A DNA stretch of 64,000 nt from the IMG/VR virus record IMGVR_UViG_3300032117_000009, positions 1 through 64,000 of that record; one strand, 5' to 3'. Source of the stretch: a virus. Below the pieces are notes generated by a model. The model was given only the letters and a program-made list of their open reading frames with translations, ran no database searches and was not told where the DNA came from. Positions 59,674-61,497 of the stretch are shown here, one piece after another (the first letter of the stretch is position 1; each line of letters starts with the position of its first letter). The translations under genes and the position numbers were made by a program.

Positions 59674-59749
59674 TGGGGTGACCGATGGGACTTGAACCCA
59701 CAACCGCTCGGGCCACATCCGAGTGCTCTACCAATTGAGCTACGGCCAC
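59674..59749 (-). tRNA. trnH: tRNA-His(GUG), CCA encoded, no genomic G-1
   Basis: Anticodon arm CTCGG-ATGTGGC-CCGAG; C73; the base at -1 is T. Confidence 0.9.
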
Positions 59750-59754
59750 ATTTA

Positions 59755-59811
59755 GATAGGTCCTGATAGCCACTCCAGGTTGATCTACTATATAGATCGG
59801 CATTACCTACC
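59755..59811 (-). ncRNA. 57-nt three-way-junction element between tRNA-Pro and tRNA-His
   Basis: GGTAGGT/ACCTATC closing stem, GATCTA/TAGATC hairpin, CCTGG/TCAGG hairpin. Confidence 0.55.
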
Positions 59812-59815
59812 ATAG

Positions 59816-59888
59816 TCGGGTTGGAGAGACTCGAACTCTCGGCCTCATGCTCCCAAAGCATGCGATCTACCTACTGATCTACAACCCG
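59816..59888 (-). tRNA. trnP: tRNA-Pro(UGG)
   Basis: CGGGTTG/CAACCCG acceptor, GATC/GATC D-stem, CATGC-TTTGGGA-GCATG anticodon arm; 5' end overlaps the endonuclease ORF. Confidence 0.9.
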
Positions 59889-60353
59889 TAAATAATTTTC
59901 TATTTCTAATTTGTTGTTTTCATACCAACCAAGTCTAATATTGCAACCACAACAAAGTAATCCTCTTACATTACCTGTTACATGATCATGATCAATTGCA
60001 AAGTTTCTTCCAGTAGAACATTTATCTGTCTTGCAGATAGAGCATTTGTTGTTCTGATTCTTCATCATATCATGAAAATCATCTATTGTTAAACCAAATA
60101 GTCTAGTTCTTTCTTTAATATTTAAACATGGTCTACAATATGCTGATTTTTTTACTTTATTGTTTTCTTTACAATAAATACATAAATCAGTAAAGTTCTT
60201 TTTTTGTGATCTAATTGGGTTGTTTGTTATAGCTGCACATTGCTGAGAACAAAACAAACCTGTGCCTTTTTTGATCTGGTACTGATATCTTGTGAATGTG
60301 TTGTTGCAATCTTTGCTTTTGCACGTTTCTTGAATTGAAGTAATTTTATTCAT
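59871..60353 (-). CDS. endonuclease VII-like (His-Me) free-standing homing endonuclease
   Basis: QNNKCSIC...AIDHDHVTGNVRGLLCCGCNIRLG; N-terminal Zn fingers; AGGAGG SD. Confidence 0.9.
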   Translation of the reverse strand: MNKITSIQETCKSKDCNNTFTRYQYQIKKGTGLFCSQQCAAITNNPIRSQKKNFTDLCIYCKENNKVKKSAYCRPCLNIKERTRLFGLTIDDFHDMMKNQNNKCSICKTDKCSTGRNFAIDHDHVTGNVRGLLCCGCNIRLGWYENNKLEIENYLRVVDQ

Positions 60354-60401
60354 ACTTATAAACCCTCCTATTACTTTTTTGTTTTCAAGTATGAATTACA
60401 T

Positions 60402-60423
60402 TACCAAGCTGCGCCACAACCCG
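60402..60423 (-). pseudogene. orphan 5' fragment of tRNA-Pro
   Basis: CGGGTTGTGGCGCAGCTTGGTA: acceptor 5' strand identical to the intact tRNA-Pro plus a canonical D-arm start, then breaks off. Confidence 0.75.
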
Positions 60424-60448
60424 TTACTTGATTAACATATCATAAATA

Positions 60449-60637
60449 TTACTCTGTTTCTCCAATATCCCAATCATCATAAGAGCCAAGACGAACCATA
60501 TGAATACAAGGATCATCTCCACGTTCCCAAGCAAGCTCTTCGCTTTCATGCATAGGTCCACCATCATGCGTATTACAAAATTGATCTGTGCAATACCCAT
60601 TATCAATTCCAAATTTCAACCACTCATCAAATGTCAT
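60449..60637 (-). CDS. small hypothetical protein (62 aa)
   Basis: MTFDEWLKFGIDNGYC...CNTHDG...DPCIHMVRL; probable Cys/His metal site. Confidence 0.7.
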   Translation of the reverse strand: MTFDEWLKFGIDNGYCTDQFCNTHDGGPMHESEELAWERGDDPCIHMVRLGSYDDWDIGETE

Positions 60638-60666
60638 ACTTTTATCTTTCCACTATGTTTATAAAG

Positions 60667-60740
60667 CTCCCGAGGTAGGACTCGAACCTACAACATCCTG
60701 ATTAACAGTCAGGCGCAACTGCCAATTGTGCTACTCGGGA
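60667..60740 (-). tRNA. trnN: tRNA-Asn(GUU)
   Basis: Anticodon arm CCTGA-CTGTTAA-TCAGG; G73. Confidence 0.93.
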
Positions 60741-60750
60741 ATGTTTATTG

Positions 60751-61224
60751 TTAATAAGATTTACCTTCAGCATATCTTTTTTTTCGATATGCCCTTCCAT
60801 TACCTCTATTCTTTCCTTTATATGTTTCTAGAAGCATATCACAATTACCGCAGACTAAACGAACATTTTCCCAAGAGTTATTATATGAATTGCCATCTAT
60901 ATGATCAAGAATTAATGGCATTGGTTTTCCTTGCCACTCAGTCCCTTTACATATTGAGCAAGTGTTACCTTCTGTTGCAAGTCTAGTATTCTTTAATATT
61001 CTAGTTCCAGCTTTTTCATCTAATATTTTTTTAATGCCTCTACAAAAACTAGAACATACATTAGAACCTTTATAAGTTTTATTATCACAAATAACACACT
61101 GAGTAATTTTATTTTTATCTAGTTTAACTCTTTTTGGGTGTAAAGAATTGTTTCTTTTTGTAGAATAAGATCTAGAACAAAATTTTGGATTATTTGTTTC
61201 TTTTTTACAATTTAAACATTCCAT
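60751..61224 (-). CDS. HNH homing endonuclease
   Basis: CSICK.TEWQGKPMPLILDHIDGNSYNNSWENVRLVCGNC; N-terminal Zn fingers. Confidence 0.88.
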   Translation of the reverse strand: MECLNCKKETNNPKFCSRSYSTKRNNSLHPKRVKLDKNKITQCVICDNKTYKGSNVCSSFCRGIKKILDEKAGTRILKNTRLATEGNTCSICKGTEWQGKPMPLILDHIDGNSYNNSWENVRLVCGNCDMLLETYKGKNRGNGRAYRKKRYAEGKSY

Positions 61225-61226
61225 AG

Positions 61227-61301
61227 AGCCAGCACTCGGACTCGAACCGAGGAAACCTCCACTTTACAAGAGTGGCGCTCTACCAACTGAGCTATACTGG
61301 C
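61227..61301 (-). tRNA. trnT: tRNA-Thr(UGU)
   Basis: Anticodon arm CCACT-CTTGTAA-AGTGG; variable region about 2 nt longer than usual. Confidence 0.9.
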
Positions 61302-61319
61302 ATTTCTTGCTACAGAGAT

Positions 61320-61347
61320 ACTATAGCATGAAATCTAGGTATTTTAC
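61320..61347 (-). promoter_or_regulatory. sigmaA-type extended -10 promoter for the right tRNA cluster
   Basis: CATGC-TATAGT with GTAAAA 16 nt upstream; about 20 nt before tRNA-Thr. Confidence 0.6.
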
Positions 61348-61497
61348 CTACTTCTCAATAATATTTACCTTAAGTCCACTAACTTGACTCAGAAGAGAGT
61401 TTCGAAGACCATCAATAGTCTCCTTAATCTCCTGTAGAGGAAGTTCATTGCCCTCTTGATTGTCGTAGGTGATCTTAATTGTAACTGTCTTAGGCAT
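61348..61497 (-). CDS. small hypothetical protein (49 aa, MPKTVTIKITY...)
   Basis: GGAGG SD and TAATG coupling to dps; 3' part of track ORF 61348..61551. Confidence 0.6.
   Translation of the reverse strand: MPKTVTIKITYDNQEGNELPLQEIKETIDGLRNSLLSQVSGLKVNIIEK

Follow-up and report, generated by a model that had tools for sequence, protein, structure and literature searches.

A phage tRNA array analysed here contains a nuclease gene lodged between the 5' remnant of a tRNA-Pro gene and a complete but diverged tRNA-Pro, and the nuclease reading frame ends inside that tRNA. We consider it likely that this is a homing endonuclease cassette which carries a leader hairpin and a diverged tRNA-Pro, and which has replaced the resident tRNA-Pro in the tRNA array of an Actinomycetota phage. 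The window, by which we mean the whole stretch of 64,000 nucleotides analysed (positions 1 to 64,000 of IMG/VR record IMGVR_UViG_3300032117_000009), belongs to a genome of 124,688 bp with terminal repeats and 14 tRNAs.

In this reading the unit would comprise the leader, a nuclease of 160 amino acids (aa) and a tRNA-Pro(UGG) whose D arm is diverged and whose first 18 nt end the nuclease ORF, stop codon included. The unit would have replaced a resident, host-type tRNA-Pro from position 23 on, leaving positions 1–22 behind as a stub. The nuclease would cut the same tRNA gene in co-infecting relatives that lack the cassette, and repair after cutting would copy the cassette in. The linked tRNA would then be both an uncut allele and a functional substitute for the broken gene. 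The cleavage target, the immunity of the linked allele and any regulatory role for tRNA processing are inferred; the anatomy, the empty site, the recurrence in the family, the shared anticodons, the non-canonical D stems and the predicted hairpins are results of the analysis.

The tRNA-Pro locus and its empty site

On the minus strand the order is a 62-aa ORF, the tRNA 5' stub, a 48-nt leader, the 160-aa ORF and tRNA-Pro(UGG), followed by tRNA-His, tRNA-Tyr, tRNA-Ser and tRNA-Ile (Table 1). A preliminary description of this DNA had named a stub, a nuclease ORF and an overlapping tRNA-Pro, and direct reading together with ARAGORN, Pfam and Rfam confirms that anatomy.

Table 1. Features of the tRNA-Pro locus, in window coordinates
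Feature	Position	Strand	Evidence
tRNA-Pro stub, positions 1–22 (acceptor 5' strand, D stem GCGC, D loop)	60402..60423	-	Sequence read; actinobacterial matches; position in L003
Cassette leader and start region	60330..60401	-	Conserved leader; predicted SD/AUG-occluding hairpin
Endonuclease VII-type gene, 160 aa	59871..60353	-	PF02945; PHROG; motif against 1e7d
tRNA-Pro(UGG), nuclease-linked, D stem GATC/GATC	59815..59888	-	ARAGORN; Rfam RF00005, 70 bits (gathering score 29)
ORF/tRNA overlap, 18 nt: last five sense codons and TAG, equal to tRNA positions 1–18	59871..59888	-	
62-aa gene, left synteny marker of the insertion site	60449..60637	-	95% identity to L003; 21 related viral loci
Right flank: tRNA-Pro 3' tip and spacer to tRNA-His	59750..59821	-	Homologous to L003

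Read from 60423 to 60402, the stub consists of the acceptor strand CGGGTTG, T8, G9, the D stem and the D loop through GGTA. Its D loop of 9 nt and GCGC stem stand against a loop of 8 nt and a GATC stem in the intact tRNA-Pro. Stub and intact gene agree over the acceptor strand and T8 (8/8 nt) and differ only within the 14 nt that come after. Chromosomal tRNA-Pro genes of more than 120 Actinomycetota species, GGG, CGG and UGG isoacceptors among them, begin with exactly the 22-mer of the stub, and the pattern CGGGTTGTRG has two sites only in the 124,688-bp genome, the stub and the intact tRNA-Pro. Because of this match, the rarity of the pattern and a start shared with the tRNA-Pro-like gene of a relative, locus L003, we regard the stub as a real tRNA-Pro remnant. 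The match is also a clue that the host may be an actinobacterium and that the resident tRNA-Pro gene may have been host-like. The identical chromosomal 5' ends (loci L110–L189) come from Arthrobacter, Rothia, Glycomyces, Acidimicrobiales, Pontimonas and others. Exact 20–22-mer scans of IMG/VR with the stub-type and the GATC-type tRNA-Pro returned only the window's own record, and blastn against the INPHARED phages gave generic tRNA matches only. The tRNA stubs were not detected by an Rfam search, even at a permissive threshold.

The linked tRNA-Pro folds in ARAGORN as a cloverleaf with a UGG anticodon and is the sole tRNA-Pro that this program calls in the whole phage genome. It is 78% identical to a host-type UGG allele. 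The differences are densest in the D arm, with others in the anticodon stem, variable loop and T arm. Its acceptor, CGGGTTG/CAACCCG, is of the kind general among actinobacterial tRNA-Pro genes, and the stub and the intact copy would be expected to share it in any case. No 3' stub is present in the window downstream of tRNA-Pro.

The 160-aa ORF matches PF02945 (Endonuclease_7) with an E value of 2.8e-17 and 62.8 bits against a cut-off of 23.6, and its PHROG matches are to endonuclease VII families only. The protein is made up of a Cys-rich N-terminal domain and an endonuclease VII (His-Me finger) domain. The catalytic and zinc motif (C..C, DH.H, C..CN) is intact and is invariant in the family alignment, and the motif DHDH...C..CN aligns with T4 endonuclease VII (PDB 1e7d). 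For the N-terminal domain there were zinc-finger (FCS) matches only, all of them sub-threshold. Neither Pfam nor PHROGs finds a GIY-YIG domain; both give endonuclease VII only, and membership of the SegB (GIY-YIG) type was rejected. The gene is single-copy in the genome and stands alone, outside any detected self-splicing intron or intein, and we infer from its sequence and setting that it is a free-standing homing endonuclease gene.

Two other kinds of insertion were considered. A group I intron in the tRNA gene was rejected, as the GCGC D stem of the stub has no downstream partner and the downstream tRNA is complete in itself; Rfam gave no match to an intron family in 59700–61350 at E up to 10, nor to any other RNA family in the cassette at a permissive threshold. 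An integrase-type island in a tRNA gene was likewise rejected. The duplicated part is the tRNA 5' end and no integrase lies near the cassette, the neighbouring ORFs being the 62-aa protein and an HNH nuclease. A scan for sigma-70 promoters and terminators stayed at chance level.

What does the site look like where there is no cassette? L003 is the closest relative found, and its order is the 62-aa gene, one uninterrupted tRNA-Pro-like gene, the same spacer and tRNA-His, with no nuclease at the site. Left-flank homology to L003 (88%) extends into the first 5 nt of the stub, and the start of the stub coincides exactly with the start of the L003 tRNA-Pro-like gene. Right-flank homology resumes at the tRNA 3' tip (L003:4280-4393 against window 59821-59707, 72%), and about 600 bp of the window stand in place of about 60 bp of L003. 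The preliminary description placed the nuclease inside a resident tRNA-Pro gene whose role is now taken by the diverged tRNA-Pro, and this empty site, along with the parallels in tRNA-Val, tRNA-Thr and tRNA-Lys described below, bears that out. It also looked to a nuclease-free relative with an intact GCGC-type tRNA-Pro at the locus. None was found; the L003 allele is of a third type, with D stem GGA/TCC, no G18G19 and T loop GGCGGTA, and although it folds as a cloverleaf it is missed by ARAGORN and Infernal. Presence and absence at homologous sites are seen in L003 and the window, in L004 against L032 and L038, and in L029 against L034.

Several further features of the region were noted. The spacer between tRNA-Pro and tRNA-His (window 59754-59811, minus strand) has a long core identical to that of L003. 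A second and unrelated nuclease gene (60751-61224, minus strand) fills the gap between tRNA-Thr and tRNA-Asn exactly; it matches PHROG HNH families, with Pfam HNH_3 below cut-off. L003 is without this gene, and its Thr and Asn tRNAs are 15 nt apart. Searching IMG/VR with the downstream 142-aa gene gave no relatives. The first tRNA cluster (3.7–7.1 kb of the window) is free of nuclease genes and cassettes. This cluster contains genes for a pyrimidine-dimer DNA glycosylase and a macro-domain protein (3990-4409 and 4769-5251, minus strand), and its tRNA-Val has a non-canonical ACTC D stem.

Related cassettes and their tRNAs

Homologues of the 160-aa nuclease (P0002–P0006 and loci L024 and L029–L040) share 41–55% identity. 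The full-length homologues are in phage tRNA arrays at 13/13 loci, with two decayed remnants besides, whereas loci that match the catalytic domain alone have any tRNA nearby in just 3/70. The Cys-rich N-terminal domain thus goes with a location among tRNA genes.

The cassette anatomy of these relatives was read by eye and then checked by BLAST. In L034 a tRNA-Val is split into positions 1–23 and 46–76 around a leader, the nuclease and a diverged tRNA-Val(UAC); both stubs match the intact tRNA-Val(UAC) of L029 at 100% identity, and the flanks are syntenic. L032 has a tRNA-Thr split into a 20-nt 5' piece and a 29-nt 3' piece around a diverged tRNA-Thr, leader and nuclease, and its empty site is seen in L004, with an intact tRNA-Thr in the same place and with the same neighbours. 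In L024 canonical tRNA-Lys halves with perfectly complementary acceptors enclose a leader, the nuclease and a Lys-like cloverleaf whose T loop is odd. L036 has the unit of nuclease and tRNA-Val behind a decayed 5' piece of a tRNA-Val, and in L037 the same unit lies behind an intact tRNA-Thr. Compared with L004, L038 has the whole unit, including a complete tRNA-Pro, inserted in a spacer. The nuclease of L029 splits a Lys-like gene with no substitute tRNA visible in the locus. Wherever the linked tRNA and the broken gene can be typed (Pro, Val, Thr, Lys), they have the same anticodon. The 5' stubs mostly end at the D loop or D stem (positions 20–25) and the 3' stubs start at the variable loop, so that the broken tRNAs have lost the D-stem 3' strand and the anticodon arm. 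Since that part is missing from the stubs, the cut would probably fall between the D-stem 3' strand and the anticodon arm.

Nuclease and spare tRNA do not come in a fixed order across the family. In L032 the substitute tRNA-Thr (L032:2349-2443) is upstream of the nuclease and directly abuts the 5' stub. In L035 non-canonical tRNAs flank the nuclease on both sides. A decayed C-terminal remnant of about 47 aa is present in L027 (3001-3224) and L028; it has tRNA-Asn on one side and, on the other, a tRNA-Ile(UAU) whose D arm is odd and into which the open frame of the remnant continues.

The D arms of the linked tRNAs are unusual. A canonical GC[T/G]C D stem is found in none of the 5 to 7 linked tRNAs, whose stems are GATC, GGAA, GTTT, GTAC and ACTC, compared with 19/22 unlinked Pro, Thr, Val and Lys tRNAs at the same loci. 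For five independent types a hypergeometric estimate of this contrast is about 7e-4. The type of T stem does not separate linked from unlinked tRNAs. Non-canonical D stems would fit alleles that escape the nuclease. Several tRNAs of the window phage have canonical D arms and remain uncut, which means that the target cannot consist of the D arm only and would have to include identity-specific positions. Because the substitute tRNAs differ from the resident tRNAs along their whole length, what looks like recoding may be no more than the divergence that separates donor from recipient.

Genes resembling tRNA cloverleaves but with odd T loops (GGCGGTA or GGCAGAA) are present at L003:4214-4285, L029:2998-3045 and L024:3475-3547. 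They are Pro-like and Lys-like and are not called by ARAGORN, and the one in L003 is missed by Infernal also. Those of L003 and L029 have nearly the same T arm and different anticodons. They may be alleles that escape a nuclease which recognises the T arm.

Is the mature tRNA-Pro of the window a chimera, in which the element brought only a recoded 5' part (from about positions 1–25 to 1–44) and the 3' part is resident? This would account for the identical acceptor 5' strands of stub and intact copy, with every difference in the 14 nt that follow, for the lack of a downstream 3' stub and for the return of L003 homology at the tRNA 3' tip. However, the shared acceptor is the one general to actinobacterial tRNA-Pro, the anticodon stem, variable loop and T arm are also unlike the host-type alleles, and the cassettes of L034, L024 and L038 carry a complete tRNA, with the resident 3' part, where present, beyond it. 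We find the chimera doubtful, therefore, and of the preliminary claim that the tRNA was split, replaced and rebuilt in its 5' half, the splitting and the replacement stand on the strength of the family and the empty site, while rebuilding of the 5' half only seems less likely in view of the complete tRNAs in those three cassettes. A quite different origin for the stub, as the relic of an unrelated decay or duplication of tRNA-Pro, with the nuclease located, as is usual for free-standing endonucleases, in a spacer that happens to separate a defunct copy from a working one, appears very improbable. It is true that tRNA arrays are prone to recombination and that the L038 and L037 cassettes lie in spacers without a stub. 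But the stub of the window directly abuts the conserved leader, and its end at the D loop matches the stubs of L032 and L034; only one gene occupies the site in L003; and in L034, L032 and L024 there are stubs on both sides of the cassette, which tandem duplication does not give.

The odd tRNAs might also owe their form to the host. If the linked D arms and odd T loops had been selected to escape tRNA-cleaving defences, the nuclease would spread such tRNAs as useful cargo. We think this unlikely, since the deviation is confined to nuclease-linked tRNAs, the unlinked tRNAs of the same identity being largely canonical, and since the known defence nucleases act mostly at anticodon or variable loops. 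In its favour, resistance of phage tRNAs to defence nucleases has precedents, and loci of this kind are amplified by SegB (PMC13096335; see also PMC11464382).

The predicted leader hairpin and the stop codon within the tRNA

The leader is conserved across the cassettes, and pairing of this leader with the SD, the AUG or both is predicted for all members. In the window, the fold of 60330-60430 has an energy of -23 kcal/mol (z -4.98), with the AUG within the stem. Analogous hairpins are predicted in 7 homologous cassettes, with z from -2.2 to -7.5, and the window and L034 hairpins differ by a double change from U-A to C-G. RNAalifold found no consensus structure on seven leaders, because the pairing register shifts between subgroups. 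This hairpin, which would bury the SD and AUG, was absent from the preliminary description. Hairpins over the SD and AUG are a classical brake on T4 endonuclease genes, segB included (PMC2330249), and the one predicted here probably keeps the expression of the nuclease low.

The nuclease ORF of the window ends TTA|CGG GTT GTA GAT CAG TAG, where the bar marks tRNA +1, which is on a codon boundary. The overlap between ORF and tRNA is 18 nt in the window, 21 nt in L024, 10 nt in L034, L036 and L037, and 7 nt in L038. Whenever an intact tRNA comes next, in whichever lineage, the ORF ends within that tRNA; members that have a stub next instead have their own stop 2–3 codons past a conserved YL. The exact codon boundary had been put forward as a meaningful feature. 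With tRNA +1 on a boundary in just 2/4 of the overlapping cassette types, we no longer attach significance to it. A different feature of the junction lies in the D loop. With a host-type tRNA-Pro in the frame of the window, the ORF would continue for at least 25 codons, whereas the D loop of the linked tRNA gives a TAG after five. The unusual D loop of the Lys-like tRNA in L024 likewise supplies an early in-frame TAG. Because unusual D loops do this in both the window and L024, there are hints that the ORF and the tRNA are co-adapted.

RNase P cuts the precursor at tRNA +1, and a cut at that point would leave a nuclease mRNA with no stop codon. Loss of the stop on tRNA maturation would thus be a logical consequence of the layout: one transcript could not be both a mature tRNA and a stop-containing mRNA. 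Self-limitation of the nuclease through nonstop mRNA and tmRNA would follow by the same logic. This is not a new idea. It was proposed earlier for T4 segB and tRNA-Arg by Brok-Volchanskaya et al. (2008), with the segB message cut between the last codon and the stop codon during tRNA-Arg maturation (PMC2330249). A similar lowering of expression had been proposed for nucleases of the T5 tRNA region, as cited in that paper.

Alternatively, the overlap may be mere compaction, a by-product of the way in which junctions arise within tRNA arrays, with no regulatory role, so that the hairpin alone limits expression. We give this reading a chance only a little short of even. The length and frame of the overlap vary, as described above, the half share of codon boundaries included, the members followed by a stub have stops of their own soon after the conserved YL, and the residues encoded by the tRNA are not conserved. 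Moreover, in T6 the 3' end of segB readily becomes joined to the 5' end of a tRNA through microhomology (PMC13096335). Against compaction, unrelated tRNAs, at least three of them, have come to share such an overlap with the nuclease, and no lineage with an intact tRNA behind the ORF is without it; both of the frame-0 cases obtain an early in-frame TAG from an unusual D loop, and the unrelated segB of T4 has the same layout (PMC2330249).

Implications and comparison with known systems

In the usual view, a homing endonuclease can occupy an essential gene only by means of a self-splicing intron or intein, and otherwise lies between genes. The cassette described here would be a third route in phages, in which the gene is broken and the same element supplies a diverged substitute. 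This would explain stray tRNA halves in phage arrays, the fast turnover of tRNA alleles and some of the odd tRNAs that standard finders miss. The recurrence of a stop codon within a tRNA, here and in the unrelated T4 segB, would be a testable case of competition between tRNA processing and the translation of a toxic gene. A bolder and, in our judgement, rather unlikely extension is that these cassettes are a natural cleave-and-rescue family. The nuclease would target host-type tRNA genes in rival phages and possibly in the host chromosome, rescue would come from an uncut and co-adapted tRNA of the same anticodon with a stop in its D loop, and the dose of nuclease would be set by tRNA processing. 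The host chromosome is included as a possible target because the stub is identical to chromosomal tRNA-Pro genes. Were this true, maturation by RNase P and translation of the full-length nuclease would be mutually exclusive.

Which known systems are closest? Group I intron endonucleases in bacterial tRNA genes, such as that of the Synechocystis tRNA-fMet intron, also place a homing endonuclease in a tRNA gene, and there the tRNA is restored by RNA splicing. In the window no intron family is detected, and function would be restored by a separate DNA copy. T4 endonuclease VII (gp49; 1e7d) has the same catalytic domain and the zinc/His-Me motif. Unlike the window nuclease, it is a junction-resolving enzyme that is not mobile and is without the Cys-rich N-terminal domain, and the similarity covers about 50 residues (E 0.007).

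T4 SegB is similar in being a free-standing nuclease gene in a phage tRNA array that cuts the tRNA genes of nuclease-free relatives, with a hairpin predicted over its SD and AUG and an ORF that ends at the 5' edge of the next tRNA (PMC2330249). SegB recognises a conserved motif of tRNA genes, the T arm (PMC2330249). It differs in its GIY-YIG fold and T-arm target, the window nuclease being of endonuclease VII/His-Me type, and for SegB neither a split resident tRNA nor a substitute of the same anticodon is described (PMC2330249). The T5 enzymes F-TflI/II/IV are HNH-type nucleases among phage tRNA genes, as cited in PMC2330249, and a replacement-tRNA architecture is not reported for them in that citing paper. 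The presence of nucleases in phage tRNA clusters that recognise tRNA-gene motifs is, then, already known.

Nucleases that carry substitutes for parts of genes are also known already, in fungal mitochondria (PMC3630166). Our literature search turned up no phage nuclease family described as nesting in tRNA genes and bringing a spare tRNA of the same anticodon. In the fungal mobile ORFs (Allomyces atp6; Glomus atp6, atp9, cox2 and nad3), a nuclease arrives with a foreign substitute for the displaced part of the gene, and the native remnant is left unexpressed (PMC3630166). The fungal elements differ in that they are found in organelles, affect protein genes, replace the 3' end through an in-frame fusion and encode LAGLIDADG or GIY-YIG enzymes (PMC3630166). 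In the window, by contrast, the target is an RNA gene and the substitute is 3' of the nuclease and overlaps its stop. The stub, the nuclease and the diverged tRNA, with their analogues across the family, together have the same gene-hybrid architecture as the fungal ORFs, a likeness that does not imply shared descent. The logic of the proposed cassette would be that of synthetic cleave-and-rescue gene drives and of the fungal mitochondrial mobile ORFs, applied to tRNA genes.
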